DNA of 64,000 nucleotides, from NCBI GenBank assembly GCA_963749705.1, contig CAVVNQ010000004.1, positions 250,204 to 314,203 on the forward strand, written 5' to 3'. The notes beneath the pieces were generated by a model that made no database searches, was not told where the DNA came from, and worked only from the letters and a program-made list of their open reading frames with translations. Within the stretch, counting starts at the first letter, position 1. Each line of letters begins with the position of its first letter. This document shows positions 19,226 through 47,084 of the stretch, one piece after another. This DNA is from an uncultured Chloroflexia bacterium (GTDB lineage Bacteria; Chloroflexota; Limnocylindria; Limnocylindrales; CSP1-4). Made by a program: the position numbers and the translations under genes.

Positions 19226-20425
19226 CTAGACGCGTCCCTTCGGCACGGTGTGCCAGTACGTCTTGTTGAACACGATCTTGCCCAGGTGCCACAGCTGGTT
19301 CGGCTTGGGCGGCCGGGGCGGATGGTCGTAGTCGAACTGGAGCAGCGTGCCCTTGCCGTCGCCGACCTCGAAGAAGCACATGACCTTGCCGCCATAGGTC
19401 GAATGCTTGCCCGCCGGCTTCTTGCCGAGCACCGCGGCGGCGACCCGTTCGGCGATGACGGGGGCCTCGAAGTGGGCGGTCGACCCCGCCTTCGAGAGGG
19501 GCAGGTCCGTGGTGTCGCCCAGGGCGTGGATGTTCGGGTAGCGGGGAATGTCCTCGTCGGCCTGGCCGGGCGCGGCCTTGGCGACGGTCTTGACCTGGAG
19601 CGTGTGGCGGTCGGTGGGCAGCCAGCCCGACTTGGGCGCGAGCCCGGAGTCGATCAGGAACTGCGCGCCCTTGTGCGGAGGCACGACGATCAGGAGGTCG
19701 TACGGATGCTCCTCGAACGCGTCGGTGATGGCCACCTTGCGCTGGGGGTCGATCTGGGCGATGCCCGCGAGCAGCTCGAGGTGGATGCCCTTCTGCTCGA
19801 AGATCGGGGTCACCATCTCGGACACGCTCTCGATCGTGAACGCCCGGTTGATCGGCGACAGGAACGTGATCTCGCTCTTCTCGCGCAGGCCGCGGGCACG
19901 GAGCTCGGACTCGATCAGGAAGGCGACCTCGAGCGGCGCCGGCGGGCACTTGTAGGGGATGCCCGCGATGCCGATCACGATCCTCCCACCCTGGAAGGCA
20001 TCGAGCGCCTTGCGCAGCTTGGCCGCCGCGCCGGGGGTGTAGAAGTGATGCGCCTCGGTGTCGAAGCCATCGGTCAGCTCGGGCATGATCCGTGAGCCGG
20101 TGGCGATCACCAGCTGGTCGTACCGGAGCGTCTCGCCCGACGCAAGCTCGACCGACTGCCCCGTCGCATCGATGCGGGTGACCTTGTCGACCACGAGATC
20201 GACGTTGCCGTCGAGGAGCGACTTCTCCGACCGGACGAGACGTTCGGGCTTCTCGTTGCCCATGGCGATGTACATGTAGCCGGGCTGGTACGTGTGGCGG
20301 CCGGTCGCGTCGACGACGGTGACCCTGGCCTCCTGGCGCGCGATGGGCCCCTTGAGCTTGCGTGCGATGAGGTTGGCGGCGAGGGTCCCCCCCACCCCGC
20401 CGCCCAGGACGACGACCCGCTTCAT
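19226..20425 (-). CDS. sqr: sulfide:quinone oxidoreductase (type III-like)
   Basis: GGGVGG FAD motif, YQPG, PYKCPPAPLE, VPPHKG, GD..DLPLSKAGS, YGGKVMCF second Cys; amphipathic C-terminus. Confidence 0.85.
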   Translation of the reverse strand: MKRVVVLGGGVGGTLAANLIARKLKGPIARQEARVTVVDATGRHTYQPGYMYIAMGNEKPERLVRSEKSLLDGNVDLVVDKVTRIDATGQSVELASGETLRYDQLVIATGSRIMPELTDGFDTEAHHFYTPGAAAKLRKALDAFQGGRIVIGIAGIPYKCPPAPLEVAFLIESELRARGLREKSEITFLSPINRAFTIESVSEMVTPIFEQKGIHLELLAGIAQIDPQRKVAITDAFEEHPYDLLIVVPPHKGAQFLIDSGLAPKSGWLPTDRHTLQVKTVAKAAPGQADEDIPRYPNIHALGDTTDLPLSKAGSTAHFEAPVIAERVAAAVLGKKPAGKHSTYGGKVMCFFEVGDGKGTLLQFDYDHPPRPPKPNQLWHLGKIVFNKTYWHTVPKGRV

Positions 20426-20429
20426 GGGG

Positions 20430-20693
20430 CTACCGCACCTTCTCGACGATGATCTCGTCGAAGCCGTCGCGGGTGAACACGCCGATCAGGTTGTGGCCGG
20501 CCTTCTCGATCCACTTGGGGATGTCGGTCTTGCTTCCCTTGTCCGAGGACAGGACCGACAGGACGTCGCCGGTCTCGGCCTCGCGCATGCCCCGGATGAG
20601 CTCCATCAGGGGTCCGGGGCAGAAGCTGCCGCGGGCGTCGAGGGTGGTGGTGATGGCGGGAATGGTGGTGGGGGCGGTTGCGGTCTCAGTCAT
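20430..20693 (-). CDS. tusA: sulfur carrier protein, TusA family
   Basis: LDARGSFCPGP motif; SSDKGSKTDIPKW. Confidence 0.88.
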   Translation of the reverse strand: MTETATAPTTIPAITTTLDARGSFCPGPLMELIRGMREAETGDVLSVLSSDKGSKTDIPKWIEKAGHNLIGVFTRDGFDEIIVEKVR

Positions 20694-20773
20694 CGGAATG
20701 TCCCTTCCGGGGGATGCGGGCGATCGGAACCGGTACGGAGGGGGCCCGCACCGTTCGCCCGATCGGTTGGCGT

Positions 20774-21322
20774 CTAGATGAACAGCGGGGACGAGCCCTC
20801 GCCGACGTAGGACAGGTAGGTGGCGGCCCCGACGGGCTCGCCCATGCCCTCGATCAGGTCCTCGCGCTTGATGCCGAACATGTCCATCGTCATCTGGCAC
20901 GGGATGAACTCGACGCCCATCGACTGGGCGATCTCGAGCAGCTCCTTGGGGCTGGCCACGTTGTACTGCCTGGCCAGCTTGCGCATCATCCACGGGCCCA
21001 TGCCCAGGAAGTTCATCTTCGAGAGCTTGCGGTGGCTGATGCCCGGGCGCTGCATGAACGACATCATCTTCTGCATCCAGTTCTCGCCCGTGATGCGGAC
21101 GTCGTCCCGGACGAAGGTCTGGAGGCCCCAGAAGGTGACGAACACCTTGGTCGGCATCGCCATGGCGCCGGCTGTGGAGGCGAGGATCATGGCCGCCCAG
21201 GTCTTCTCGAGATCACCGCTGTAGCAGATGATCGCGAGGCCCTTGGGCTGGACCTCCGCCTCCGGCGCGGGTGCCGGCTCGGGCAGGGTGTCGGGGGTGA
21301 CGGGGAGGTCTGCGACAACCAT
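20774..21322 (-). CDS. DsrE/DsrF/DrsH-like sulfurtransferase (DsrE2 type)
   Basis: YSGDLEK, FVTFWGL, PCQMTMDMFGI with the conserved Cys. Confidence 0.88.
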   Translation of the reverse strand: MVVADLPVTPDTLPEPAPAPEAEVQPKGLAIICYSGDLEKTWAAMILASTAGAMAMPTKVFVTFWGLQTFVRDDVRITGENWMQKMMSFMQRPGISHRKLSKMNFLGMGPWMMRKLARQYNVASPKELLEIAQSMGVEFIPCQMTMDMFGIKREDLIEGMGEPVGAATYLSYVGEGSSPLFI

Positions 21323-21330
21323 CGTGTGGC

Positions 21331-21567
21331 CTACTTTCGGCGAAGGACGAAGCGGAACACGCCGCCGTCCGCGCTCTGCTCGACGATCTCGTTGCCGGTC
21401 GTCTTCGACCAGGCGGCGAAGTCCTTGACGGACCCCGGGTCGGTCGCGATGACCTCCAGGGTCTGACCGGATGCGAGGCCCTTCATGGCCTGCGCGGTCT
21501 TGACGATCGGCATCGGGCAGTTGAGCCCCTTCGCATCGACCGTCACATCTGCGGTGACCGTGCTCAT
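21331..21567 (-). CDS. tusA: sulfur carrier protein, TusA family
   Basis: VDAKGLNCPMP, ATDPGSVKDFAAW. Confidence 0.9.
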   Translation of the reverse strand: MSTVTADVTVDAKGLNCPMPIVKTAQAMKGLASGQTLEVIATDPGSVKDFAAWSKTTGNEIVEQSADGGVFRFVLRRK

Positions 21568-21607
21568 TCGTTGCTCCTTCCCGCGGCGAAGCTCGCCGCC
21601 ATGTGGG

Positions 21608-22021
21608 CTAGATGAAGACGACCTGGCCCTCGCCCGCGTTGAGGTAGAAGGCGGTCACGCCCTCCACGCCATCGACGAGCGGGTCGAGGTCCTCGGCCTC
21701 GAGGTGGAGGAGGTCCATCGACAGCGAGCAGGCCTGGATGTCGACCGAGCCGAGGTCCTTGGCCTGGCGGAGGGTCTCCGCCCAGCTGGCCTGGCCGGCC
21801 TTCGCCAGGGCATCGACGGCGGCCCGGCCACCGGGGCCGGCTTCCGGGGCGAGCCCGTGGTCGGCGTCGATCCTGGCCTTGCTGAACGCGTCGAGCGCCC
21901 AGTACTGGAGGAACACGTTGACCTGCTTGCCCAGCGCGGCTGCACCGGCGGTCAGCACGGCGGCGGCCTGGAGCTTGTCGTCGGTCCCGGAGAACAGGAC
22001 CAGGTTGAGGGGTTCGTCCAT
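21608..22021 (-). CDS. DsrE-family protein
   Basis: FSGTDDK, FLQYWAL, ACSLSMD. Confidence 0.82.
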   Translation of the reverse strand: MDEPLNLVLFSGTDDKLQAAAVLTAGAAALGKQVNVFLQYWALDAFSKARIDADHGLAPEAGPGGRAAVDALAKAGQASWAETLRQAKDLGSVDIQACSLSMDLLHLEAEDLDPLVDGVEGVTAFYLNAGEGQVVFI

Positions 22022-22040
22022 GATGTCGTGCCTCGCTCAG

Positions 22041-22385
22041 CTACTGGATCTCGACAAGGTCTGACGTGACCTGATCAACGCTGGACAGGCGTCCGAGGCG
22101 GGAAAGCCGGCGGGTGAGGACGCCGCGCATCACGCCACAGGCGACGATCACGTCGGGATCCGACAGCCGGTAGCGAACCTCGCGGCCGTCACGCTCGGCG
22201 TCCACCAGGCCACTGGCTCGCAGCACCGACAGATGCTGGGAGATGTTGGGCTGGCTGACCCCGAGCTCGTCGGCGAGCCGGCTGACCTCGCACGGGCCTT
22301 CCGAAAGGCGGTGGAGGATCTCCAGCCGCCGGGGGCTCGCGAGGGTCTTCAGGATGTCTGCCTGCAGCACCAAGATCTCGTCCAT
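22041..22385 (-). CDS. ArsR/SmtB-family repressor (BigR/SqrR-like)
   Basis: LKTLASPRRLEIL, VSQPNISQHLSVLR, RDGREVRYRL; Cys in GPCE and in helix 5 (VACG). Confidence 0.88.
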   Translation of the reverse strand: MDEILVLQADILKTLASPRRLEILHRLSEGPCEVSRLADELGVSQPNISQHLSVLRASGLVDAERDGREVRYRLSDPDVIVACGVMRGVLTRRLSRLGRLSSVDQVTSDLVEIQ

Positions 22386-22441
22386 GGCCCAAGCATCGCC
22401 ATATGCGCAGATGCGCATGAGTGCCGTGGGTCATGTGGTGG

Positions 22442-22477
22442 GGTGCCGCAGCCCCCGGTCGAGGGGCCGGTCGGCCC
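22442..22477. promoter_or_regulatory. tandem DosR/DevR-box-like sites
   Basis: GGTGC-CGCA-GCCCC (22442) and GGGCC-GGTC-GGCCC (22464), 22 bp apart, between divergent genes. Confidence 0.45.
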
Positions 22478-22699
22478 GGTTCGCGCCGTGCGGATCGGCC
22501 TCCGCTCGGTTCGACGCCGGGCCGGGCGTTCGGCAACGGGCCATCGGCCATCGTCGACGCCAACCGATGCCACTCGCCGGTGACGGGCGGCACATCCATG
22601 CTGAGGATGGATCGGACGCCCGGAGACACCGGCTCCGACGCAATCGCCCGGGACACGAGGCGCGACGGTCGCCCCCTGGCCCGGTGATCGGAGGCGTCG

Positions 22700-23158
22700 A
22701 TGCACGCGCAGACCGCCGAGGCCGCGACAACCCTCGTGTGGATCGACAGCGAGGAGGCGATCATCGTCCGCTGGGCCGACCGCGCGGCCGTCGAACGGAT
22801 CCGCTCCGACGTACCCGGCCGGCATCGGTCGACCCCGCACGTGCGGGTCGATCCGACGACGCGTCACGGCGGCGGTGGCGCGACCGCGGATGCCGCCGAG
22901 CGGGCGCGGCGCAGCCACCTGCGGGCGTACCTGGATGACGTCGCCCGCCATGTCCCGGACACCGACGACGTGACGGTCGTCGGCCCCGGGATCGTGCGTG
23001 AACGGCTGGAGCGCAACCTGCGCGCCGAGGACCGGCTTCACGGGCGTCGGCGGCACGTGCGCTCCTCGGCGGCGGAGCGGCTGACCGAGCAGGAGCTCGT
23101 CGCCCGCGTGCGTGCCCTGGCGGGCGACGCACCGCGCCGCCAGGGGTTGGCGGGGTAG
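22700..23158 (+). CDS. stand-alone eRF1/pelota domain-2-like protein (baeRF/host-attachment-like)
   Basis: VWIDSEEAIIV, His/Gly loop RHGGGG, YLDDVARHV...VVGPG, RLTEQELVARVR; GGAGG RBS. Confidence 0.65.
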   Translation: MHAQTAEAATTLVWIDSEEAIIVRWADRAAVERIRSDVPGRHRSTPHVRVDPTTRHGGGGATADAAERARRSHLRAYLDDVARHVPDTDDVTVVGPGIVRERLERNLRAEDRLHGRRRHVRSSAAERLTEQELVARVRALAGDAPRRQGLAG

Positions 23159-23287: not shown

Positions 23288-23572
23288 ATGGCCATGTCCA
23301 CCCCGCTCGTCGATGCCCCACTTCGGCAGCTCGATCGCGGTGTCCCGGCGTTCCAGCCGGTCGTTGTCTCAACCGAGCGGTGCAAGGGCTGCGGCCTGTG
23401 CGTCGCCGCGTGCCAGCCCCACGTTCTCGAGCTCGATGTCGGCGTCGTCAACGCGATGGGCCACCATCCCGTCCGGCTGACCGACGCCGCGGGATGCACC
23501 AGCTGCGCCAAGTGCGCGCGGGTGTGTCCTGACGCGGCGCTCACGATCTTCGCCCGACCCAGGGGGGCGTGA
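23288..23572 (+). CDS. 2x[4Fe-4S] ferredoxin, delta subunit of 2-oxoacid:ferredoxin oxidoreductase
   Basis: CKGCGLCVAAC and CTSCAKCARVCP; GGAGGT RBS. Confidence 0.9.
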   Translation: MAMSTPLVDAPLRQLDRGVPAFQPVVVSTERCKGCGLCVAACQPHVLELDVGVVNAMGHHPVRLTDAAGCTSCAKCARVCPDAALTIFARPRGA

Positions 23573-24728
23573 CGATGACCGCACACACGAAGGTCGCACC
23601 CAGGGCCGGCAAGCGCCCGCTCGTCGCACCCGGGGCCGGATCCGACCGGCCCGCGGAGGAGCGGGTCCTGATGAAGGGCAACGAGGCGATCGCCGAGGCC
23701 GCGATCGCCGCCGGCTGCGACGCCTACTTCGGCTACCCGATCACGCCCCAGGCCGAGCTGCTCGAATGGATGGCGCGCCGGATGCCCGAGGAGGGCCGGG
23801 TGTTCGTCCAGGCCGAGAGCGAGCTGGCCGCGATCAACATGGCGCTGGGTGCATCGGCCGCGGGCGCCCGCGTGCTGGTATCGAGCTCCAGCCCCGGGAT
23901 CAGCCTCATGGCCGAGGCGATGTCGTACATGGCGGGCTCGCGCCTGCCGGTGGTGCTGGTCAACGTCATGCGCGGCGGACCGGGGCTCGGCAGCATCGGT
24001 GCCGCCCAGGGCGACTACCTCCAGGCGACCAAGGGCCACGGCCACGGCGACTACCGGACCCCGGTGCTGGCGCCGTCGTCGATCGCGGAGGCGATCGAGC
24101 TCGTCGGCGACGCGTTCACGCTGGCCGAGCGGTACCGCACCCCGGTCATCCTGCTCGCGGACGGCATCCTGGGCCAGGCCATGGAGCCCGTCGCGCCGCG
24201 GTTCCGGTCGATCGAGCGCACGCCGGCCGACTGGACGCTCGGCGGCGCCGAGGACCGCGCGCCGCGGGTGGTCAGGTCGCTCCACCTGCTGCCCGAGGAT
24301 CTCGAGCGGCACAACGACACGCTCCAGGCCGTGTACGCGGACATCACCGAGCACGAGCGGCGATGGGCCGGCGAGGCGCTCGAGGATGCCGAGGTCGTGC
24401 TCGTCGCCTATGGGACGGCGGCGCGCATCGCGCGCACGGCCGTCGAGCGCGCCCGGGACGACGGGCTGCGGGCCGGGCTGTTCCGTCCGATCACGCTGTG
24501 GCCGTTCCCGGCGCCCGAGCTCCGCAGCGCGGCTGCCGGTGCCCGGGCGGTGCTGGCCGTCGAGCTGTCCGCCGGGCAGCTGGTCGAGGACGTCCGGCTG
24601 GCGATCGAAGGTGCCGTGCCCGTGTTCCACCACGGCCGGACGGGCGGCATGGTGCCCAGTCCCGACGAGGTGCTGGCGGCAACACGCCGCGCCTGGTCGG
24701 TGACCCCGATGACGAAGGAAGGTGTGCG

Positions 24729-24732
<4 letters not shown>
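23569..24732 (+). CDS. vorB: 2-oxoacid:ferredoxin oxidoreductase alpha subunit (VorB type)
   Basis: MKGNEAIAEAA, GYPITPQ, QAESELAA, SSSPG, MRGGPGLG, RPITLWPFP. Confidence 0.9.
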
Positions 24733-25603
<871 letters not shown>

Positions 25604-25607
<4 letters not shown>

Positions 25608-26161
25608 CGATGGAACGCTCCACGCTGTTCGCCGGGTTCGGCGGTCAGGGGATCCTGTTCGCCGGCAAGGTGCTCGCCCAGGCGGCCGTGCTCGAGGGAC
25701 GCGAGGTCATCTGGATCCCCAGCTACGGCCCCGAGATGCGCGGCGGGACCGCGTCGTGCACGGTCATCGTCGCCGATCGGCCGATCGGGTCTCCCGTCGT
25801 GGATCGTGCCGACCACGCCGTGGTCCTCAATCCCCCGTCGATGGCCAAGTACGAGCCGCTGGTCGCCCGTGGCGGGCTGCTGGTCGTCAACACCACGCTG
25901 ATCGAGGCGGAGCCGCGGCGCACGGACATCGAGGCGCTGCAGGTTCCGTGCACCTCGCTCGCCCGTCGCGCCGGCGACGACAAGCTGGTGTCGGTCGTCG
26001 CGCTGGGTGCCCTCATCGGCCGGCGCCCGTTCGTCGAGCGCGAGAGCGTCCACGAGGCGCTCAGCGTGCTGCTCGGGTCGCGCCGCGCGGAGATGGTGGA
26101 GCTCGACGTCGCCGCGTTCGATGCCGGCTACGAGGCGGGTCTGGAGTCGGTCATCGCCTGA
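25604..26161 (+). CDS. 2-oxoacid:ferredoxin oxidoreductase gamma subunit
   Basis: AGFGGQG, PSYGPEMRGG. Confidence 0.9.
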
Positions 26162-26312
26162 TCCCGCGCCGCCGCGGGAGGGCACCGGCCGGCCCGACCG
26201 CACGACCGGTCGGGCGCGGGGACCCACCCGGTCGTGACGATCAGCCCTCGGGCCCGGGCGTCCGGCACTGGATGCTGGTGACAGGTCCGCGACGGCGGAC
26301 CGGGAGCTGACG

Positions 26313-29084
26313 TTGACCGTACCCGCTCACGCGCGCCTGCCACCTTCCGCTTCCGCCACGGCGGATCCGGGATCCGGTCCCGTGCCGGCGGCGGCAATCG
26401 AGGGGCCGTGGCGTCTGCCGGCCGAAACGGTCGCCACCCGCCTGGGCACGGATCCCGGACGCGGGCTCGACCCCGCGGAAGCCGGAAGCCGCCTGGTCCG
26501 TTTCGGCCGCAACGAGCTGCTGGACCGCAGACACACGTCCGTCTGGCAGGTCCTGGCGCGGCAGGTGACGAGCCCGATGATCCTGGTGCTGATCGGAGCG
26601 GCCGCGATCGTCGCGTTCATCGGCGACCTCAAGGACACGGCCGTCATCCTGGCGATCGTCGTGCTCAACGCCCTGATCGGATTTACCCAGGAGTATCGCG
26701 CCGAGCGGGCGATGGCGGCGCTGCGGCGGCTCACCTCCCCTGTCGCCACCGTGATCCGGGGCGGCATGTCGCTCAGCGTTCCGGCCCCGGAGCTCGTCCC
26801 CGGGGACCTGGTCTCGATCGCGGTGGGCGACTTCGTGGCGGCCGACCTCCGACTGGTTTCCGCCAAGGCGCTGCGCATCGACGAATCGACGCTGACCGGC
26901 GAATCGGAGCCGGCCGACAAGTCGACGGATCCCCTGCCCGATGTCACGGCGGCGCTGCTCGGCGACCAGGTCAACATGGCGTTCAGCGGCACGGCCGTCA
27001 CCTTCGGGCGCGGCACCGGGATCGTGGTCGGCAGCGGGATGGCGACGGCGATCGGCCGTGTGGCGGATCTGCTGCAGGGGCAGGCGGACCAGCAGACCCC
27101 GCTCCAGCACCGCCTCGCCCGCCTGGGGGCACAGCTGGCCGGGATCGCGGTCGCCGTGTGTGCGGTGGTGTTCGCGATGGGCATGGCGCGGGGCGAAGCC
27201 GTCGAGACCATGTTCCTCACCGCTGTCAGCCTCGCGGTCGCCGCGATCCCCGAGGGCCTGCCGGCCGTGATCACCATCGCGCTCGCCCTCGGCGCCCGGC
27301 GGATGGCCGCACGACGGGCGCTCGTCCGCCGGCTGCCGGCGGTGGAGACACTGGGGTCCGTCAGCGTGGTCTGCTCGGACAAGACGGGCACGCTCACCGA
27401 GAATCGGATGCTCGTCGAGCGGGTCTGGACCCCGGCCGCGGAGTACCGGACGACGGGGGACGGCTACGGCCCCGGCGGCACCATCGAACCGGCGCCCGAC
27501 GGTGACGAGCGGTTCGACGCCCTGCTGCGGGTCGCGGGCATCTGCAATGACGCTGCACTTGTGCCGCCGGTCGATCCTGGTGGCGCGTGGTCGATCACGG
27601 GCGACCCGACCGAGGCCGCCCTGCTGGCGCTGGTCGCCCGGCACGGGACAGATCGCGATGCGCTCTGCGAACGCCACCCGCGAAGCGAGGAGCTGACCTT
27701 TGACGCGAGCCGCCGCCGGATGATGACCCTCCACGCGGATGGTGATGGAATCCTCGTTGCGCTCAAGGGTGCGCCCGAGGCCGTGATCCCGCTGCTGGCG
27801 CCCCAGGAGGCAGGCCACGCGGCGGAGGCCCTCGAGGTTGCCGCGCGCCTCGCTGCCGACGGGTACCGCGTGCTTGCCCTCGCCGATCGACGGCTGGCGG
27901 CGATCCCGGCACCGATCGCGGCAGCCGAGCATGACCTCAGGCTGGTCGGCCTGGTGGCCATGCAGGATCCTCCGCGACGCCAGGTCGCGGCTGCGATCAG
28001 CGCCTCCCGCGCTGCCGGGATCACTCCCGTGATGATCACCGGGGACCATCCCCTCACCGCGGGCGCGATCGCCGCGCGGATCGGCATCCTGGGCGACGGC
28101 CGCATTGCCGTGACCGGAGCCGACCTCGAGGCGATGAGCGCGGACGAGCTCGCGCAGTCGATCGACCGGATCGGCGTGTACGCCCGGACCAACCCGGAGC
28201 AGAAGCTCGACATCATCGCGGCCTGGCGCCGCCGCGGCGCGGTCGTCGCGATGACCGGCGATGGCGTGAACGACGCCCCGGCGCTGCAGCTCGCCGACAT
28301 CGGCGTCGCAATGGGGATCACCGGGACCGAGGTCAGCAAGGAAGCGTCGGACATGGTCCTCGCGGACGACGACTTTGCGACCATCGTGGCGGCGGTCGAG
28401 GAGGGCCGGCGGATCTACGACAACATCCGTCGCTTCCTGCGCTACATGCTGACCACGAACTCGGCGGAGATCTGGGTCATGGCAATGGCGCCGGTGCTCG
28501 GGCTGCCGATCCCGCTGCTCGCGGTCCAGATCCTGTGGATCAATCTCGTCACCGACGGTCTGCCCGCGCTCGCCCTGGGCGTCGAGCCGGTGCATGCCGG
28601 GACGATGTCGCGACCACCACGGCGACGCGACGAGTCGATCCTCGGTGGCGGTCTGTGGCAGCAGGCGCTGTGGGTCGGCGCCCTGATGGCGGCGGCGACG
28701 CTCGTCCTGCAGAGGGTCGCGATCGAGGCGGGCTGGGCGTGGCAGACGATGGTGTTCACGACGCTCGCGCTCCTCCAGCTGGGCAACGCGGTCGCGGTCC
28801 GCTCGACGACGGCCAGCACGCTCAGCCTCGGGATGCGCTCGAACCTCCCGCTCGCCGGAGCCGTCCTGGGCGGCGCGCTGCTCCAGCTGGCACTGGTCTA
28901 CGTCACACCGCTCCACGCACTGTTCGAGACTCAGACGCTTGGCCCGCTGGAGCTCGCCGTCGTCCTCGGGGTGTCGACGGTCGGCTTCGTCGCGGTGGAG
29001 CTCGAGAAGCTCGCCCGCCGCCACGGCTGGCTCGCCCGGCGCAGCGAGCGCGCCCAGTGCCGGCCGGGCAGGACGCCCGCGTGA
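26313..29084 (+). CDS. P2A-type cation-translocating P-type ATPase (CtpF-like)
   Basis: [43 protein letters not shown]; start approximate. Confidence 0.93.
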
Positions 29085-35195: not shown

Positions 35196-35262
35196 GAGCA
35201 CCGCGCCGTCGGGCGCGGGCAGGGTGACGCCGCGCACGCAGACCGGCCGACTGCCGCGAGAC

Positions 35263-36915: not shown

Positions 36916-37440
36916 ATGCTCGACCGGACGATGACGACCGCGACCGCCGACGATGCCGTGCAGCGGATGCTGCACGCCCGGATCGACGACGCGTTCCGGC
37001 TGGCCACGTTCATCCTGCGCGACCGACAGCTCGCCGAGGACTGCGTCCAGGAGGCTGCGCTGCTCGCGTGGCGACGACGCCGGTCGTTGCGCGACAGCGC
37101 CGCCGTCGACGGCTGGTTCACCCGGATCCTGGTCAACGTCTGTCGCGACGAGCTCCGACGCCAGGCGAGGCGGCCGCGCGTGGTCGCACTCAACCCCGCG
37201 GTCGAGGCGGGCGCGGGCTCGCCACCGGACCGGGTCGACCTCGGTCCCGCGATCGGCCGCCTGAGCGCGGACGAGCAGGCGCTCCTCGCGCTGCGGTTCG
37301 GGCGCGAGCTCACCGTTCCTCAGATCGCGCAACGGCTCGAGCTTCCCGAGGGAACGATCAAGTCGCGGCTCCACACCACGCTGCAACACCTGCGCGCGGC
37401 GCTCGACGCGGAGCGTCGCCTGGAAGGGGCAACCCGATGA
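36916..37440 (+). CDS. ECF sigma factor
   Basis: Region 2 (AEDCVQEA...WFTRILVNVC) and region 4 (IAQRLELPEGTIKSRL). Confidence 0.9.
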   Translation: MLDRTMTTATADDAVQRMLHARIDDAFRLATFILRDRQLAEDCVQEAALLAWRRRRSLRDSAAVDGWFTRILVNVCRDELRRQARRPRVVALNPAVEAGAGSPPDRVDLGPAIGRLSADEQALLALRFGRELTVPQIAQRLELPEGTIKSRLHTTLQHLRAALDAERRLEGATR

Positions 37441-39257: not shown

Positions 39258-40598
39258 TCAGCGAGCCGCGGCGAGCGTCGCCTTCGCGCGGGCGATGACC
39301 GGGGCCAGCGGCGCCTCGAGCGTTCCCGAGACGGGCTCCAGCTCGTAGCGGACGCGGACGATCGGCTTGGGGACCGACAGCACGCGGGTGAGGTCGATCG
39401 GCGTCGCCGCCAGCACCACGTCAGCCGGGATCGCGGTCAGCGCGGCCTCGAGCTCGTGGATCTGCTTGTCGCCGTAGCCCATCGCCGGCAGCAGCCGCTC
39501 CAGCGCCGGGTACTTGGCCAGCGTTGCGGCAAGCTCGCCCGTCGCATATGGCCGGGGATCCACGACCTCGGCAGCCCCGAACCGCTTCGCCGCGACGATC
39601 CCGGCACCGTACGTCATGCCACCGTGGGTGAGCGTGGGTCCATCCTCGACGACCACCACGGACCGCCCGTGGATGTCGCCACCCTCGAGCGCAAGCGACG
39701 ATCGGGCCTCGACGATGGTCGCGCGCGGGTTGAGCTCGGCGATCCCGGCACGAACGGTCGCCAGGGCTTCCGGCGTCGCTGAGTCGACCTTGTTGATCAC
39801 GATCACGTCGGCCATGCGCACGTTGGCCTCACCCGGGTGATAGCGCAGCTCGTGGCCGGGCCGCAGCGGGTCCACGACCACGATCTGGACGTCCGGGCGG
39901 TAGAACGGCAGGTCGTTGTTGCCGCCGTCCCAGATGACGACGTCGGACTCGGCCTCGGCGGCCCGCAGGATCTGCTCGTAGTCCACGCCGGCGAACACGA
40001 GGCGACCCGCGTCGAGATGCGGCTCGTACTCCTCGCGCTCCTCGATCGTGGTCTCGTACCGGTCGAGGTCCGCGTACGTCTCGTAGCGCTGGACGCGCTG
40101 CGCGACCAGGTCCCCGTAGGGCATCGGGTGCCGGACGACCGCCACCTTGAGCCCCTGGGCCTCGAGCAGCGACGCGACATACCGGCTGGTCTGGCTCTTG
40201 CCGGAGCCGGTTCGCACGGCGCACACGGACACGACCGGGCGGCTGCTCTCGATCATGGTGCGCGCCGGGCCGAGCAGCTCGAAGTCCGCACCGGCGGCCA
40301 TCGCGCGTGATGCGGCGTGCATGACCTGCTCGTGGCTGACATCGCTGTAGGCGAACACGACGGTGTCCACCGCCAGGTCGCGGATCAGGGCTTCCAGCTC
40401 GCCCTCCGGGCGGATCGGGATCCCGGCCGGGTATCGCTCGCCGGCCAGCTCGGCCGGATACCTGCGATCGGCGATCCCGGGGATCTGCGTCGCCGTGAAG
40501 GCGACGACCTCGACCGACGGGTCATCGCGATAGACCACGTTGAAGTCGTGGAAATCGCGGCCCGCGGCGCCCATGATGAGCACTCGTTCGGTGCGCAT
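39258..40598 (-). CDS. P-loop NTPase of the cyclic 2,3-diphosphoglycerate synthetase family (COG2403-like)
   Basis: MGAAGRDFHDFN, AVRTGSGKSQT, RHPMPYG, TIEEREEYE, WDGGNND, INKVD, EDGPTLTHGGM. Confidence 0.85.
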   Translation of the reverse strand: MRTERVLIMGAAGRDFHDFNVVYRDDPSVEVVAFTATQIPGIADRRYPAELAGERYPAGIPIRPEGELEALIRDLAVDTVVFAYSDVSHEQVMHAASRAMAAGADFELLGPARTMIESSRPVVSVCAVRTGSGKSQTSRYVASLLEAQGLKVAVVRHPMPYGDLVAQRVQRYETYADLDRYETTIEEREEYEPHLDAGRLVFAGVDYEQILRAAEAESDVVIWDGGNNDLPFYRPDVQIVVVDPLRPGHELRYHPGEANVRMADVIVINKVDSATPEALATVRAGIAELNPRATIVEARSSLALEGGDIHGRSVVVVEDGPTLTHGGMTYGAGIVAAKRFGAAEVVDPRPYATGELAATLAKYPALERLLPAMGYGDKQIHELEAALTAIPADVVLAATPIDLTRVLSVPKPIVRVRYELEPVSGTLEAPLAPVIARAKATLAAAR

Positions 40599-40742
40599 GG
40601 TCGACCTCGTGGGGAGGGGCGTGCCCGGCGCTCGCGCCGCCCGTCCGGCCAGCAGGCGAATGCGGCGGGGCCTACCTCCGCGTCTGCCCAGCATGACCCA
40701 CGGGCCGCTCGCCTGTCCCTGGCCGTGCCGCCCCACGACGGG

Positions 40743-40778
40743 GTGCCGCAGGTCCCGTCAACGCGGTCCGATCGGCAC
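40743..40778. promoter_or_regulatory. tandem DosR/DevR-box-like sites
   Basis: GTGCC-GCAG-GTCCC (40743) and GGTCC-GATC-GGCAC (40765), 22 bp apart. Confidence 0.45.
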
Positions 40779-40790
40779 TCACGCGTGCCA

Positions 40791-41011: not shown

Positions 41012-42286
41012 CTACAGCTCCAGGTGCTTGCGGGCCTCGAACATGAGCCGGTCGCGGTGGTCCGGGTGGGCGATCGCGATCAGCGCCCTGGCGCGCTCGC
41101 GCAGGCTCCGCCCCCACAGCTCCGCGACCCCCCACTCGGTCACGACCGTCTGCACGTGGGCGCGCGTCGTGACGACCCCGGCCCCTTCCTTGAGCGCCGG
41201 CGTGATCCGCGACAGCGAGCCGTCGCTGCCGCCGGTGGACGGCATCGCGATGATCGGCCGCCCGCCGCGGGCCAGCGCCGCGCCACGCATGAAATCCATC
41301 TGCCCACCGATGCCCGAGTACATCCGGTAGCCGATCGAATCGGCCACCACCTGACCGGACAGGTCGACCTCGATCGCCGAGTTGATCGCGATCATGTTGT
41401 CGAACGAGCGGATGACGTGCGTGTCGTTGGTGAAGTCCACCGAGCGCATCTCGACCATCGGGTTGTCATCTACGAACTCGTACAGCCGCCGGGTACCCAT
41501 CACGAACGCGACCACGAGCTTGCCCCGGTTGCGGGCCTTGCGGTCGCCGGTCACGACGCCGGCCTCGACGAGATCGACCACGGCGTCGGTGAACATCTCG
41601 GTGTGGATGCCCAGGTCCTTCTTGTCCGTGAGCAGCTCGGCCGTGGCCGCCGGGATCGCCCCGATCCCGAGCTGGAGCGTGGCGCCGTCGGGGACGAGGT
41701 CCGCGATGAACCCGCCGATCCGGCGCTCCAGGTCGCCGATCACCGGGCGTGCGACCTCGTACGGCGGCTGGTCGACCTCGACCGCGAGATCGATCTGGCT
41801 GACGTGGATGAACGACTCGCCCAGCGTGCGCGGCATGGCGTGGTTGAACTGGACGATGACGGTCCGTGCGGCGTCGATCGCGGCGTGCATCGCCTCGACG
41901 GACACGCCCAGGGAGCAGAACCCGTGCGAGTCAGGTGGCGTCGCGTTCACGAACACGGCGTCGAGCGGGAGCGCGCGGCTCCGGAACAGCTCGGGCACGT
42001 CCGACAGGAACACGGGCACGAAGTCGGCGCGGCCCTCGTTGACGGCCTTGCGGGCGTTGGGGCCGATGAACAGCGCCCGGTGCCGGAAGTGGGGCGCCAT
42101 CTCGGGGGCGAGATGCGGGCCGGGTCCTTCGCAGTGAAGGTGGGCGATCGACACCGCCTCCAGCTCCGACGCGCGGGCGACCAGCGCATCGAGCAGGACG
42201 GACGGCGTCGCGGCCGCGCACTGGAGATAGATCTGATCGCGGGACCGGATCCCCGCAACGGCTTCCTGGGGCGAGACGATACGCAT
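41012..42286 (-). CDS. acetyl-CoA hydrolase/CoA-transferase (4-hydroxybutyrate CoA-transferase family)
   Basis: LQLGIGAIP, GIHTEM, SGIGGQMDF, VVTEWG, IAHPDHR. Confidence 0.92.
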   Translation of the reverse strand: MRIVSPQEAVAGIRSRDQIYLQCAAATPSVLLDALVARASELEAVSIAHLHCEGPGPHLAPEMAPHFRHRALFIGPNARKAVNEGRADFVPVFLSDVPELFRSRALPLDAVFVNATPPDSHGFCSLGVSVEAMHAAIDAARTVIVQFNHAMPRTLGESFIHVSQIDLAVEVDQPPYEVARPVIGDLERRIGGFIADLVPDGATLQLGIGAIPAATAELLTDKKDLGIHTEMFTDAVVDLVEAGVVTGDRKARNRGKLVVAFVMGTRRLYEFVDDNPMVEMRSVDFTNDTHVIRSFDNMIAINSAIEVDLSGQVVADSIGYRMYSGIGGQMDFMRGAALARGGRPIIAMPSTGGSDGSLSRITPALKEGAGVVTTRAHVQTVVTEWGVAELWGRSLRERARALIAIAHPDHRDRLMFEARKHLEL

Positions 42287-42313: not shown

Positions 42314-42349
42314 GGACCGTCCGGCCGGATGGCAGGGTCCGCGGGTCCG
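42314..42349. promoter_or_regulatory. tandem DosR-box-like sites (weaker)
   Basis: GGACC-GTCC-GGCCG (42314) and GGTCC-GCGG-GTCCG (42336), 22 bp apart, upstream of the CoA-transferase. Confidence 0.35.
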
Positions 42350-42413
42350 GTGGACCCTGCGCCGGCGGGACGCACGGGTTGCTGGCGGGGGGACCCCATG
42401 AGCGCGACGCCCG

Positions 42414-42761
42414 TCACGCAGGATCGGGCGTCCGCCTCAGCTCGAACGCCGGCCCGGCGCCCAGCGACTCGGATGGCGTCCCGTAGCGCAGGATCAGGTC
42501 GCGAACCGCGGCCTGGTGCTCGGCGCCGTCGAGCTCCCGCGCCTGCGCCTCGAACACGTCCTCGCCGATCGTGACCCGGCAGGCCGGGTCGGACCACAGG
42601 TTGCGTGCCCAGTCCGCATCCGGCGAGCCGGCTGCGACCACCAGCGTCCCGTCGGGCCGTTCCACGTACCCGACGACGGCTCGCGCCGGGCGGCCGGACA
42701 CGCGTCCACGCGTCTCGATCCGGAGCACGCGACCCCAGCCGACGAGGTCGTCTTCCATCAT
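42414..42761 (-). CDS. deazaflavin (F420)-dependent nitroreductase/quinone reductase family protein
   Basis: LRIETRGRVSGRPAR and DWARNLWSDP motifs (DUF385/Ddn-like). Confidence 0.75.
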   Translation of the reverse strand: MMEDDLVGWGRVLRIETRGRVSGRPARAVVGYVERPDGTLVVAAGSPDADWARNLWSDPACRVTIGEDVFEAQARELDGAEHQAAVRDLILRYGTPSESLGAGPAFELRRTPDPA

Positions 42762-42869: not shown

Positions 42870-43547
42870 CTACCCGCCGCCGCGGTCCAGGCGGTGCTTG
42901 GCGACGAACGCGGCCGCCTGCGCGCGCCGCTCGAGGTTCAGCTTCGAAAGGATCGAGCTGACGTAGTTCTTGACCGTCTTGTCGGACAGGAACACCTCGG
43001 CCGCGATCTCCTTGTTCGTCTTGCCCTCGGCGACGAGGAGCAGGATCCGCTGCTCCTGCGCGGTGAGCTGCGCCATCTCGTCCGTGTAGGCACCGGTCGC
43101 GATGCGGCGGACGCGCTCGAGGACCTTCTCCGTGACCGCGGGGTCGAGCAGCGACTCGCCGCGGCCGACCGATTCCAGCGCGGCGACGAGGTCCCGGGCG
43201 CGGATCTGCTTGAGCAGGTAGCCCGAGGCACCGGCGACGATCGCGGACAGCACCGCTTCCTCGTCCGGGTACGAGGTGAGCATCACGACCCGCGTGGCCG
43301 GCAGCTCGGCCCGGATCTCACGGCACGCCTCGATCCCCGATCCATCGGGCAGCCGGACGTCCATGACCACGATGTCGGGCTGGAAGCGGCGGGCCTGCTC
43401 GATCAATTCGGCGGCGGTTCCGGCCTCGGCCACGACCTGGAAGCCTTCGCGGCGATCCAGGAGCGCGACGAGACCCTGGCGTACGACCTCGTGGTCATCG
43501 ACCACGAGGAGTCGCAGGGGACGCGAGCTGGGGTCGGTCACTGTCAC
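42870..43547 (-). CDS. NarL-family response regulator, DosR/DevR-like
   Basis: VDDHEVVRQG, DVRLPDGSG, LTS, GASGYLLK; HTH GKTNKEIA..FLSDKTVKNYVSSILSKL..ERRAQAA closely matches DevR. Confidence 0.9.
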   Translation of the reverse strand: MTVTDPSSRPLRLLVVDDHEVVRQGLVALLDRREGFQVVAEAGTAAELIEQARRFQPDIVVMDVRLPDGSGIEACREIRAELPATRVVMLTSYPDEEAVLSAIVAGASGYLLKQIRARDLVAALESVGRGESLLDPAVTEKVLERVRRIATGAYTDEMAQLTAQEQRILLLVAEGKTNKEIAAEVFLSDKTVKNYVSSILSKLNLERRAQAAAFVAKHRLDRGGG

Positions 43548-45160
43548 TCTTCCTCGGTGCCGGGGGGACGGCGGTCCCCGGATGCGGCGTCCGACGACGC
43601 CGGCACTCGGACGATGATACGCGTGCCGGGCCCGTCCGGGCGCTCGATCGCGAACGTCCCCCCCATGCCGACGGCTCGATCCCGCATGTTGGTGAGCCCC
43701 TGGTGGCGCCCGAGCGCGTCCGGCCCGGCGATCGTGGCCGGGTCGAACCCGCGGCCGTTGTCGTCGATGACCAGCACCAGCTCGGCGTCGTCCCGGGCGA
43801 GCACCAGGGCGGCGCGGCTTGCGCTCGCGTGCCGGGCGACGTTGGACAGCGCCTCGCGAGCGATGAGCAGCAGGTCGGACGCACGATCCGGCGGCAGGCG
43901 TCGCATCGCCTCGGCGCCCCCTTCGAGATCGACCTCGAGGTCGACCACCGCGTGCAACGTGAACTCCTCGCCCAGCCGGGCCAGCGCCTCCACCGGGTCC
44001 TCGTCCCCGCCCGTCGCCGACCGCAGGCGCAGGATGTACGACCGGATCTCGTTGATCACGAGGTTGAGGGCATCGATCGCGCGGTCGATGCGGGCGATCG
44101 CGTCGGCTCGCCCGCCTTCGTCCTCGACCAGCTCGGGCACGTCCTCGAGCGACAGCCCGACGGCATAGATGCTCTGGATGATCCCGTCGTGGAGGTCCTT
44201 CCCGATCCGCTCGCGCTCCTCGACGATCGCGAGCCGCTGCACCTGGTCGTGGAGCCGGGCGTTCTCGATCGCGATCCCCGCGTGCACGCCGAACATCTCG
44301 ACCAGCCGCGCATCGTCCTCGGTGAACGGCTCGCCGCCGCTCTTGTCGGTGAGGTAGAGGTTGCCCACCGAACGCCCCTTGACGGTCACCGGGGCGCCCA
44401 GGAACGAGGTCATCGCCGGATGGTTCGGCGGGAAGCCGTAGCGGGCCGGATGCGTGCTCATGTCCGCGGCCCTGACCGTCTGACCCTCACGGATGATCAG
44501 CCCCAGCAGGCCGTGACCCCGGGGAACGTCACCGATCGCGGCGCGCTCCTCGGCGGTGATCCCGCTGGTGATGAACCGCTCGATCCGGCCGCGGCCGTCG
44601 GCGATGCCCAGCGCGGCGTACCGTGCGCCGATCAGGTCGCGAACACGGTCGACGATGAGCTGGAGCACGCGGTCGATGTCCAGCTCCGCCGCCACCGCCC
44701 GGGTGGCCGCCTCCAGCGCGGCCAGCCGCTCCGCCCGAGCGTGAACCTCGGCGCGGGACCAGGCCGCGTCGACGGCGAGCTCGATGATCCGGACCACCGC
44801 GTCCACGGCGCCCTCCGGCGCATCGAGGAACAGGCGCCCCAGCGCGTCGTGACCCTCGTGCGAGCCGAGGGTGTACATCGCCAGTGCGGCACGCTCGCCC
44901 TCGGGCGGCAGCGCGGCCAGCGTCCCCGCGCCGACCTCCAGGGCCGGCAGGGGTGGCGCGCAGATCTCGAGCACCGCCCCGCGCGCGCTGGCGAGCTCGA
45001 GGATCCCGTGGAGCGCGCCGGCGACGGCGGTCCGGTGCTCGCTCGACGGGTCGCGCTGCCACGCCTCGAGCGCCTCGAGCGCCCGCACCAGCGGGAGGTT
45101 CTCGTCCACCGAGGCAGTCCGGACGGGCGCAGCCGAGCTGGCGCTTGATCGCGTGGTCAT
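43544..45160 (-). CDS. GAF-domain sensor histidine kinase, DosS/DosT-like
   Basis: GAF with ARYAALG, PRGHGLLG, HPARYGFPPNHPAMTSFLGAP; HisKA_3 ERERIGKDLHDGIIQ; HATPase EALSNVARH, DNGRGF, GLTNM. Confidence 0.9.
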   Translation of the reverse strand: MTTRSSASSAAPVRTASVDENLPLVRALEALEAWQRDPSSEHRTAVAGALHGILELASARGAVLEICAPPLPALEVGAGTLAALPPEGERAALAMYTLGSHEGHDALGRLFLDAPEGAVDAVVRIIELAVDAAWSRAEVHARAERLAALEAATRAVAAELDIDRVLQLIVDRVRDLIGARYAALGIADGRGRIERFITSGITAEERAAIGDVPRGHGLLGLIIREGQTVRAADMSTHPARYGFPPNHPAMTSFLGAPVTVKGRSVGNLYLTDKSGGEPFTEDDARLVEMFGVHAGIAIENARLHDQVQRLAIVEERERIGKDLHDGIIQSIYAVGLSLEDVPELVEDEGGRADAIARIDRAIDALNLVINEIRSYILRLRSATGGDEDPVEALARLGEEFTLHAVVDLEVDLEGGAEAMRRLPPDRASDLLLIAREALSNVARHASASRAALVLARDDAELVLVIDDNGRGFDPATIAGPDALGRHQGLTNMRDRAVGMGGTFAIERPDGPGTRIIVRVPASSDAASGDRRPPGTEEE

Positions 45161-45193
45161 CGGCGTGAGCCTAGCAGCCTCGCTCGTGCTCGC

Positions 45194-45232
45194 GTGCCGG
45201 CGGTCCCCGCCCTTTGGGCCATTCGTCCCTTC
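45194..45232. promoter_or_regulatory. primary and secondary DosR/DevR-box-like sites between the kinase and laccase genes
   Basis: TTTGGGCCATTCGTCCCTTC (45213-45232) resembles TTSGGGACTWWAGTCCCSAA; GTGCC-GGCG-GTCCC lies 22 bp upstream. Confidence 0.6.
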
Positions 45233-45295
45233 GCAGCACCATGCTGGCCCCGGGACCATTCGCAGACCAACCGTCCCCCCCGCACCGGAGATCCC

Positions 45296-46585
45296 GTGCC
45301 CGTGGAACCCACCGACGTCCCGACCTCCGCAGCTCCGCCGGAGGGTCCCGCCCGCGATCCCGTCGAGATGGCGATGCACTCGCTGAGCCGGCGTGGCTTC
45401 CTGCGCGTCGCGGGCCTTGCCGGCGGCGGCCTGATGGCGGCCGGCGTTGCGGCCTGCCAGGCCGCGACCACGCCGGCCTGGAGCTTCGGTGCCGTCGCCG
45501 CCCCGGGGGCAGCATCGGCCGTACCGTCCGTCGCAGCGGCGACCCCGCCGGCCTCGGCCGCGCCGTCGCTCGCCCCGTCGCCGTCCGCCTCCCCCGCCCA
45601 GGCGCTCCCCGCCGGCTGGACCGACCACGACGTCAATGCCCAGGCCAAGGTCCGGCGCTTCGTGGGCAACCTGTCCGGCCCGCTGGGCCTGAGCGAGATC
45701 CTGGACAACATCCTGCCGCCGTCAACGGAGGACCCGGAGTTCACCAAGGTCGTCCAGGGCAACCAGCCCCTCGAGCCGACCATCGACGCCGACGGGGCGA
45801 AGGTGTTCGAGATGACCGTGGACGACATGGAGTGGCCGATCGACGCGGTCAACCCGCCGGTCAAGGCGCTCGGGTTCAACAAGATGTGGCCGGGCCCGAT
45901 GCTGCGGGTGATCGAGGGCGACCGGGTCAAGGTCAAGTTCACCAACAACCTCGCCGAGACCACCAGCATCCACTTCCACGGCACGGAGCCGGTCGACTTC
46001 CGCCAGGACGGCGTGGCCTTCGTCAACCAGATCCCGTTCGGCCCGGGCGAGACGTTCACCTACGACTTCGTCGCGACGCCGTCCGGCTCGCACATGTACC
46101 ACTCGCATCACAACGCGACCGACCAGGTCGGCCGCGGCCTGCTGGGCGCGTTCATCGTCGACCCCAAGGATCCCAAGGAGCGCTACGACAGGAAGTACGG
46201 GATCACCCAGGAGGTCGTGTTCATCCACAACGACGCGCTGGGTGGGTTCACGATCAACGGCCACGGCTTCCCGGCCACCACGCCCATCGTCGCCAAGCAG
46301 GGCGACAAGGTCCTGATCCGGTTCATGAACGAGGGCACGATGACGCATCCGTGGCACACCCACGGGTTCCGGATGCGCGTCGTCGCCCGCGACGGGGCCC
46401 CGCTGGGGTCGGCTGCGTTCAGCTGCGACACCCTGGGCGTCAATCCGGGCGAGCGCTGGGACGCGATCATCGATTGCCAGCGACCGGGCGTATGGGCGTT
46501 CCACTGCCACATCCTGCCGCACGCCGAGGGGCTCGACGGGATGTTCGGCATGGTGACCGCGCTCGCCATCCTGCCGCCGGGATGA
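45296..46585 (+). CDS. Tat-exported two-domain multicopper oxidase (type B, small-laccase-like)
   Basis: SRRGFL Tat motif, AAC lipobox-like; HFHG, YHSH, HPWHTHG, HCHILPH...GM. Start is GTG 45296 or ATG 45368. Confidence 0.88.
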   Translation: MPVEPTDVPTSAAPPEGPARDPVEMAMHSLSRRGFLRVAGLAGGGLMAAGVAACQAATTPAWSFGAVAAPGAASAVPSVAAATPPASAAPSLAPSPSASPAQALPAGWTDHDVNAQAKVRRFVGNLSGPLGLSEILDNILPPSTEDPEFTKVVQGNQPLEPTIDADGAKVFEMTVDDMEWPIDAVNPPVKALGFNKMWPGPMLRVIEGDRVKVKFTNNLAETTSIHFHGTEPVDFRQDGVAFVNQIPFGPGETFTYDFVATPSGSHMYHSHHNATDQVGRGLLGAFIVDPKDPKERYDRKYGITQEVVFIHNDALGGFTINGHGFPATTPIVAKQGDKVLIRFMNEGTMTHPWHTHGFRMRVVARDGAPLGSAAFSCDTLGVNPGERWDAIIDCQRPGVWAFHCHILPHAEGLDGMFGMVTALAILPPG

Positions 46586-46607
46586 CGCGGGCACCGATGG
46601 GACGACC

Positions 46608-47084
46608 GTGACGTTCGCAGCCGCCCGTCCCGCCCCGCCGCCGAAGGTCGAGAAGCTGCTGCTCGCGACCGACCTGAGCGAGGCGTCGTCGGCGGCCACC
46701 GAGCAGGCATTCGAGCTGGCCGGCCGGCTCGGCGCATCGCTGCTCGTGGTGTCCGTGATCGACCCGGGCTCGCTGCTCCTGCCCGGGGGCCGGTTCCACT
46801 CGCGCATCGACCAGGTGCGCGAGCGCCGGGCCGCGATCGCGCAGTCGCTGGTCGAGCGCGGGCGCACCGAGGGGATCCCGGTGTCGTTCCTGGTATGGGA
46901 CGGCGACCCGGGCGACATGATCGTGTCCGCCGCGGAGGCCGAGCACGCCGACATGGTCGTCGTCGGCAGCCATGGGCGCGGCGCCGTGGGCCGCCTGTTC
47001 CTGGGCAGCGTGTCCGAGCACGTCGTGCGCAATGCGCGGTGTCCCGTGCTCGTGGTACGGCCCGGCGAGCCGGGCCAGGGCTAG
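46608..47084 (+). CDS. universal stress protein (UspA family)
   Basis: LLATDLSEAS, GDPGDMI, VVGSHGRG...LGSVSEHVV...CPVLVV. Confidence 0.92.
   Translation: MTFAAARPAPPPKVEKLLLATDLSEASSAATEQAFELAGRLGASLLVVSVIDPGSLLLPGGRFHSRIDQVRERRAAIAQSLVERGRTEGIPVSFLVWDGDPGDMIVSAAEAEHADMVVVGSHGRGAVGRLFLGSVSEHVVRNARCPVLVVRPGEPGQG

Follow-up and report, generated by a model that had tools for sequence, protein, structure and literature searches.

A probable DosRS-type two-component system and the core of its predicted regulon in a variable gene island of an uncultured Chloroflexota bacterium

Does a bacterium outside the mycobacteria carry the DosS/DosT-DosR switch together with the genes under its control? 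The question is raised by a stretch of 64,000 nucleotides (here, the window; host contig positions 250204 to 314203, GC content 71 to 72%), in which a first-pass annotation had described a clustered DosS/DosR-like hypoxia regulon at positions 19226 to 47084. All genes listed in that annotation exist there, and the locus very probably encodes a DosS/DosT-DosR (OsdK-OsdR)-type two-component system along with the core of its regulon, a reading carried by homology, conserved residues, the operator and synteny. The host belongs to the Chloroflexota, most likely to Ca. Limnocylindrales, as judged from the naming of its closest relatives. It was compared with 80 loci of relatives, the best of at least 527 confirmed regulator matches (at least 600 candidates), with identities of 83 to 98%; 21 of these loci are named Ca. 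Limnocylindrales or Limnocylindria, 1 is named Ca. Binatia, and the remainder bear other Chloroflexota names. The island forms a variable block between conserved flanks, the CoA-transferase B gene at 47118 and an aminotransferase gene (17672 to 19018). Since several relatives carry the block between these flanking genes too, the bounds 19226 and 47084 mark a variable island; the kinase-regulator pair and its boxes recur in the relatives as well. A divergent gene for a universal stress protein (USP) (28 loci) or an oxidase (31 loci) precedes the pair in 59 of the 69 loci in which the pair and the preceding gene could be parsed. The central elements are as follows.

43544 to 45160, minus strand: DosS/DosT-like sensor kinase, 538 residues; start codon ATG at 45160, set by a conserved -10 element and alignment A1
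Domains of the kinase: reduced GAF-like N-terminal domain, residues ∼23 to 135; heme GAF, 160 to 299; HisKA_3, 315 to 382 (His324); HATPase
42870 to 43541, minus strand: DosR/DevR-like response regulator (KTVKNYVS), identified by PDB alignment and tree
45213 to 45232 (primary, 20.5 bits) and 45191 to 45210 (secondary): tandem box pair between the divergent kinase and oxidase genes

The kinase had been read as DosS/DosT-like from its heme-GAF motif (HPARYGFPPNHPAM), which is present, and the likeness of the GAF domain holds. Its best PDB matches are DosS GAF-A (E 3.4e-40) and DosT (E 3.1e-38), the alignment with the GAF-A domains of both is gapless, and the modelled domain superposes on them at 1.7 to 2.1 Å. 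His247 takes the position of DosS His149, the proximal heme ligand, and Tyr269 that of DosS Tyr171, a residue of ligand discrimination (PMC4082495). At the position of DosS Glu87 stands Gly185, the DosT type, which is reported to give a stable oxy complex, a point that the same review calls disputed (PMC4082495). The proximal His is kept in all 74 relative loci with a GAF match (80 searched), the distal Tyr in 73/73 covered relatives and the Gly in 72/73. The architecture differs from that of DosS/DosT: the kinase has a single Pfam GAF domain, and the heme GAF leads directly into HisKA_3 with no GAF-B between them. A small α/β domain (∼23 to 135) N-terminal of the heme GAF has a secondary structure that suggests a reduced GAF, and many relatives possess shorter kinase forms of ∼400 residues. 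From its residues the kinase is predicted to bind heme, to respond to O2 and to work like DosT, though as an architectural variant of DosS/DosT. Some database entries of kinase homologues already bear the label DevS, and a search among representative sequences returned mostly multi-GAF repeat proteins and no names.

The regulator shows DevR as its best PDB match (E 3.9e-56), followed by VraR (E 2.6e-46), and both the recognition helix KTVKNYVS noted earlier and the receiver Asp are present in the alignment to 3c3w. In a 45-row tree it groups not with unrelated NarXL-type systems but with five actinobacterial DosR-type proteins and the regulators of other Chloroflexota families (clade support, 99/95); the five actinobacterial rows are plasmid-borne, and the tree contains no mycobacterial rows. 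The other NarL-type proteins of the host genome fall apart from this clade. As proposed, the system lies outside the mycobacteria, and the closest relatives of the regulator are nearly all Chloroflexota-named. An orphan DosR paralogue with the same recognition helix and 62% identity, without an adjoining kinase, is encoded outside the window on the same host contig (C4:7259-7972).

The third line of evidence is the operator. Gibbs sampling with 25 random starts over 63 divergent regions of relatives, the window being left out, converged on the palindrome G[GT]GAC-N4-G[GT]C[CA]C, and the training matrix comprises 41 sites after 22 regions were dropped (score <14; many with miscalled gene starts). 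The palindrome, derived from the kinase promoters of relatives, agrees with the boxes of DevR and OsdR. Between +15 and +30, the best second site lies at +22 in 21/41 and at +23 in 13/41 training sites, and the DevR positions C7 and G5 are kept in 81/82 and 79/82 half-sites. For DevR itself, G5 and C7 are essential and tandem boxes occur at all promoters, with those of tgs1 at -42.5 and -63.5 (PMC3177182). In the window, the matrix gives 8 intergenic sites of at least 7 bits, all inside the island (expected, 1.64; Poisson p 3e-4), and 4 paired intergenic sites in the island against 0.19 expected. The 22-bp-spaced boxes of the first-pass annotation are real and amount to five pairs, located upstream of the kinase/oxidase (45213/45191), GTPase (40740/40762), hydrogenase (35157/35179), CtpF-like (26231/26209) and arsR (22418/22440) promoters. 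The strongest box is that of the kinase-regulator pair's own promoter, where a TAGGCT -10 element lies 7 nt upstream of the kinase ATG. A fixed scan for GGGAC-N4-GTCCC found just one intergenic window site at up to 1 mismatch and was set aside as too strict, and a site at 46596, which overlaps the USP start and is missing in relatives, was rejected as a probable chance match.

A paired score of at least 10 is reached by 7/16 island upstream regions, compared to 71/1921 elsewhere in the genome, and the same 7/16 pass at a spacing of 22, whereas other spacings from 15 to 30 give 0 to 4. Among orthologous promoters of relatives, the threshold of 10 is reached at arsR (9/10), the GTPase (9/10), KorD (4/4), the eRF1-like gene (5/10), the cNMP-hydrogenase operon (4/12) and the CoA-transferase (18/55), compared to 0/112 for control promoters of flanking genes (0/37, 0/31, 0/24, 0/15 and 0/5). 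The proximal 20-mer usually ends 32 to 33 nt upstream of the start codon, as in 15/27 CoA-transferase and 7/9 arsR promoters scoring at least 8. TAnnnT stands directly upstream of the start codon in 23/48 box-proximal genes and in 221/1942 others. Leaderless transcription, with the boxes near -42.5 and -64.5, would account for both, and the distances match the DevR geometry if the transcripts are leaderless. Operator, tandem spacing and promoter distance thus agree with those of DevR and OsdR, which supports the earlier reading of DosR-like control.

The island further contains the following features.

46608 to 47084, plus strand: universal stress protein (gene list, relatives)
45368 to 46585, plus strand: small-laccase-like multicopper oxidase of two domains (2zwn, E 7.9e-43); Tat-like RR signal in its sequence
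42414 to 42761, minus strand: deazaflavin-dependent nitroreductase-family protein, no own box
41012 to 42286, minus strand: acetyl-CoA hydrolase/CoA-transferase; weak box pair 42319 to 42338 and 42341 to 42360
39258 to 40598, minus strand: P-loop GTPase-like protein, CobW-type match only; box pair 40740 to 40759 and 40762 to 40781
36916 to 38780, plus strand: ECF sigma factor (36916 to 37440) and putative anti-sigma factor (37437 to 38780), no box
35832 to 36839, plus strand: Zn alcohol dehydrogenase (ADH), TIGR02822 above cut-off
35263 to 35622, minus strand: short aeRF1-middle-domain-like protein, paralogue of 22700 to 23158 (hhalign 82.8%, E 9e-6)
29780 to 35060, minus strand: group 3b-type [NiFe]-hydrogenase operon (cNMP-binding, 34542 to 35060; fused beta-gamma, 32506 to 34548; delta, 31637 to 32506; alpha, 30295 to 31650; protease, 29780 to 30298); box pair 35157 to 35176 and 35179 to 35198
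29179 to 29664, minus strand: CBS-pair protein, no own paired box
26313 to 29084, plus strand: type II P-type ATPase, CtpF-like by family; box pair 26231 to 26250 and 26209 to 26228
23288 to 26161, plus strand: 2-oxoacid:ferredoxin oxidoreductase made up of delta, alpha, beta and gamma subunits; a weak box-like site lies at 23201
22700 to 23158, plus strand: stand-alone aeRF1/Pelota/Balon middle-domain protein, from fold comparison
22418 to 22480: three tandem boxes (starts 22418, 22440 and 22461) between arsR and the eRF1-like/Kor genes
19226 to 22385, minus strand: sulfur operon (ArsR, DsrE2-like, TusA, DsrE2-like, TusA, type III SQR-like flavoprotein)

The hydrogenase had been assigned to group 3b, and this holds at the level of type: the large subunit matches the sulfhydrogenase ShyA best (E 4.3e-80), and the subunits match ShyA/ShyD/ShyB types best, all below the equivalog cut-offs. 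The alpha/delta and NAD(P)-linked beta/gamma subunits and the RICGIC and DPCISC (L1/L2) motifs are present; the label itself follows from the subunit matches and the L1/L2 motifs of the group. The beta and gamma parts are fused in the window behind the cNMP gene (32506 to 35060), and two relatives (L008, L021) have them split with the cNMP gene between. The CBS-pair gene is likely read through from this operon. The ATPase is a type II P-type ATPase with a box pair, and its likeness to CtpF is at family level only. The alpha subunit of the 2-oxoacid:ferredoxin oxidoreductase lies above the VorB-subfamily cut-off. A TATGCT element lies 6 nt upstream of the CoA-transferase ATG, and a single box (35675 to 35694) is common to the ADH gene and the divergent eRF1-like gene. 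The P-loop GTPase-like protein gave no match in a PDB search and may be a cyclic 2,3-diphosphoglycerate synthase. The USP is probably cotranscribed with the oxidase, the true start of which may lie about 70 nt further upstream. The regulon had been proposed to extend to sulfur-handling and laccase genes; box pairs stand at the arsR and kinase/oxidase promoters, and the oxidase is of the two-domain laccase type. A second, ATGCGCA-type palindrome at ∼22400 to 22417, in the stretch that separates the proximal box from the arsR -10 element, is likely the ArsR operator. The same type of palindrome occurs at the kinase promoters of some relatives (L023, L027, L034, L053, L058 and L071), which suggests possible feedback from the ArsR repressor to the two-component system.

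Gene content differs among the 80 relative loci: a CoA-transferase/hydrolase occurs in 61, Kor subunits in 18 to 20, hydrogenase beta/gamma in 13 and ArsR in 10, counts that are limited by the 10-kb flanks. Single-linkage clustering had chained PFOR and small receivers under a DosR/DosS label, and these were split apart by motif. The islands of relatives also hold hemerythrin (L045:2359-2829; paired box in 3/3 scored promoters), an added cupredoxin/multicopper protein (L056:15603-16973) and, in L027:12262-17359 and similar loci, a set of three genes (small receiver-only protein, PFOR and DHOD-like flavoprotein, in this order) with a conserved box. Elsewhere in the window, positions 60378 to 64000 near the contig end show a lower GC content (0.64 to 0.66) and are poorly coding, with an integrase N-terminal fragment at 63290 to 63847. 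Host contigs C10:65-4593 and C21:8582-13031 carry near-identical genes, which represents a duplication or assembly redundancy. In a sediment metatranscriptome (X1, 8% of words), contigs of relatives, mostly <95% identical, touch 28/30 bins; because strand, level and condition cannot be read from contigs, it was not used as evidence.

Targets are not confined to the island. Paired boxes stand in the host upstream of PFOR, a DUF1918 protein, hypF, a group 1 hydrogenase, another USP, Pfk and a Rieske/cytochrome b operon. Footprinting within the family, host locus included, finds them at 9/25 DUF1918 genes, 10/20 homologues of the group 1 small subunit and 4/25 PFOR genes, against a background of ∼1% in resampled sequence and 3.7% in real promoters. 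In many relatives, PFOR lies within the island, behind a small receiver gene bearing the box. Because the boxes are conserved at off-island genes too, the claim of a physically clustered regulon stands only in part: box pairs are concentrated in the island, but the regulon is only partly clustered. Sequence motifs point to a cydA-like gene and an operon for a heme-copper oxidase in the host, which makes O2 sensing plausible. No box was found upstream of host cydA (3.9) or of the first genes of the heme-copper oxidase operon (-2.4).

Several observations weigh against a DosS/DosT-DosR switch governing the island. The kinase differs from DosS/DosT in architecture, and His89 is mostly lost, with a His at that position in 3/73 relatives; the orphan paralogue, with its identical helix, could share the boxes. 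The value of 7/16 counts two divergent pairs twice and corresponds to 5 distinct sites, one orthologous to the training set and 4 independent, and spacings other than 22 still reach up to 4/16. The promoters of the CoA-transferase and ADH/eRF1-like genes score only 4.4 and 6.5 in the window, and those of relatives pass in 0/10 cases for KorA/B and 3/11 for CBS. A GC-rich motif in GC-rich DNA entails many false positives (210 intergenic matches at 7 bits), and promoter counts in relatives are patterns rather than tests because kin are not independent samples. No own paired box was found in the window upstream of the ECF pair (5.1), the F420-type reductase (-1.4), KorA (-2.5) or CBS (1.0).

A DosRS-derived system could bind these boxes with sulfide, NO/CO or redox instead of O2 as its main cue and the SQR/TusA/DsrE operon as a direct output. 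The boxes at the sulfur operon in 9/10 relatives, the reported binding of H2S by DosS of Mycobacterium tuberculosis (PMC9062744) and the action of NO and CO on DosS/DosT (PMC5069765) speak for such a cue; it is nonetheless unlikely, as the outputs are mostly fermentative, the Gly at the DosS-87 position is the type with the reported, though disputed, stable oxy complex (PMC4082495), and the sulfur operon comes with an ArsR and a palindrome of its own and occurs in only 4 to 10 of the 80 loci within the 10-kb flanks. It is even less probable that the palindrome belongs to another regulator, e.g., of the CRP/FNR family, and that the genes form a cluster which this pair does not control. The half-site seen most often is AGTGAC (21/82), and the genome encodes three clear CRP-family helix-turn-helix proteins. 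The GTGAC half of the box resembles a CRP box, the CRP operator being TGTGA-N6-TCACA, but TGTGA is found in 6/82 halves and both halves GTGA..TCAC in 0/41 sites. The invariant C7/G12 and the tandem spacing are DevR features, the strongest box sits at the pair's own promoter, and no CRP gene lies inside the island. Least probable of all is that true regulation is restricted to the kinase/USP/oxidase promoter, the remaining sites being chance GC-rich matches and the neighbors passengers. Several window sites are indeed weak, the genes between the flanks differ widely from locus to locus, and the ECF pair, found in 1/80 relative loci, is probably a passenger; the fixed box-to-start distance at CoA-transferase and arsR promoters and the empty flanking controls argue against this reading.

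For the DosS/DosT-DosR system, heme and O2 sensing, DNA binding, activation and fermentation are predictions that combine into the following mechanism. The cytoplasmic heme GAF would bind O2 and the kinase would be held off. A drop in O2, or binding of NO or CO, would lead to autophosphorylation of His324 and transfer of the phosphate to the regulator, as expected from homology. Phosphorylated dimers would then bind the tandem palindromes 22 to 23 bp apart, the proximal one centered near -42 at promoters that are often leaderless, and activate transcription, with operator and geometry established by comparison; the switch would also amplify its own expression. The predicted output is a fermentative kit in which the 2-oxoacid:ferredoxin oxidoreductases and the CoA-transferase would serve carbon flow and the group 3b-type hydrogenase and ADH would dispose of NAD(P)H. 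The USP, the CBS protein, the cation ATPase and the small release-factor-fold proteins would be further outputs, the sulfur operon would stand under a second layer of control, probably ArsR repression, and more targets would lie elsewhere in the genome.

The kinase occurs in 24/24 genomes of the same genus; a search of 16 genomes of the same order, 1.0 to 1.4 Mb in size, did not find it. Across the Chloroflexota, heme-GAF homologues occur in 151/401 and DosR-like DNA-binding domains in 127/401 genomes, with similar tallies by family, and the group 3b large subunit occurs in 36/60 family genomes. By its sequences, the system is lineage-wide in this Chloroflexota group and not peculiar to one genome. 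Of 20 distant loci, 10 have a DosR-type regulator (53 to 66% identity) adjoining the kinase, 5 have only a more distant NarL-type neighbor and 5 have no adjacent regulator; a kinase of this kind is therefore not always part of a DosRS pair. Pairing of DosS-type heme-GAF kinases with non-DosR NarL-type regulators (35 to 40% identity) in other Chloroflexota families (L112, L114, L115, L117 and L121) is a possible rewiring. The actinobacterial rows nest among Chloroflexota rows in both the regulator tree and the GAF tree, the latter a quick tree with weak support. Chloroflexota monophyly was not rejected (27 rows, AU p 0.105). Tentatively, the switch, the tandem operator and the link to the group 3b hydrogenase may predate the Actinomycetia and be old in the Chloroflexota, a possible source of the actinobacterial system. 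If so, the Limnocylindria common in soil and sediment would be aerobes entering a DosR-controlled, ferredoxin-based H2 fermentation once O2 is gone, with a simpler kinase lacking GAF-B and with ribosome hibernation effected by small release-factor-fold proteins.

In the literature searched, mainly non-subscription texts without supplements, which might hold such annotations, DosRS is not described for any member of the Chloroflexota. The main text of a preprint on the M. smegmatis hydrogenase Hyh (10.64898/2026.10.24.761498) makes no mention of Chloroflexota, and the parts covered of a study giving background on the lineage (10.1101/2021.08.23.457424) do not mention DosR. As far as comparative data reach, this is a real regulon; its predicted mechanism is a known one and its phylum a new one, the kinase is a variant, and part of the output set is new. 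DosR has so far been studied as actinobacterial, and the conservation of sensor, regulator, operator, promoter geometry and hydrogenase target across a class in another phylum suggests that the low-oxygen program is not confined to the Actinomycetota. It would offer a regulatory account of how uncultured soil Chloroflexota could meet oxic-anoxic swings and add fermentative H2. The weight matrix is usable for predicting Chloroflexota regulons, and the kinase, which is of DosT type, naturally lacks GAF-B and comes from a nonpathogen, may serve as a model for heme signal transfer to the kinase core.

With the mycobacterial DosS/DosT-DosR system, the Chloroflexota system shares the heme GAF with its proximal His and distal Tyr, the HisKA_3 kinase, the NarL-type regulator and the same recognition helix. 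The promoters share the tandem primary and secondary boxes and the distance of the proximal box from the start, which is 33 to 34 nt from the transcription start in M. tuberculosis (PMC3177182) and is measured here from inferred starts; the spacing is 22 to 23, compared to 21 at mycobacterial tgs1. Shared targets, especially with M. smegmatis, are the USP, the CBS protein, the P-type ATPase, the DUF1918 protein and the group 3b hydrogenase. Hyh of M. smegmatis is activated by DosS/T-DosR according to two preprints (10.64898/2026.10.24.761498; 10.1101/2023.09.11.557286), which agree with the first-pass annotation in this. Unlike the mycobacterial systems, the one described here belongs to another phylum, has its heme GAF directly before the kinase core, preceded either by a reduced GAF-like domain or by no further domain, and adds ferredoxin-linked oxidoreductases, a CoA-transferase, SQR/TusA/DsrE and a two-domain oxidase to the regulon.

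The OsdK-OsdR system of Streptomyces coelicolor shows a similar core regulon beside the regulator, with a USP and a Zn dehydrogenase, and the best window sites match its consensus AGGGCCGATCGGCCCT at 12 to 13 of 16 positions (PMC5069765). OsdR also governs development and nitrate respiration genes, in contrast to the predicted Chloroflexota outputs of H2 evolution, 2-oxoacid oxidation and sulfur handling. The eRF1-like proteins had been likened to Rv2629, but they are stand-alone middle domains. The family gave no PDB match by sequence and no Pfam or NCBIfam match; full-length Balon (two Pfam models; genome 88% complete) and the models baeRF10 and baeRF3, the only baeRF models searched, were not found in the host genome. 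The fold of the 22700 to 23158 protein is a lone aeRF1/Pelota/Balon middle domain, with Z values of 11.6 for Dom34, 10.8 for Balon Msmeg1130 and 9.4 for Rv2629. Compared to Balon/Rv2629 and baeRF12/Host_attach proteins, these proteins comprise only 119 to 152 residues in one domain, and a hibernation role is only putative.

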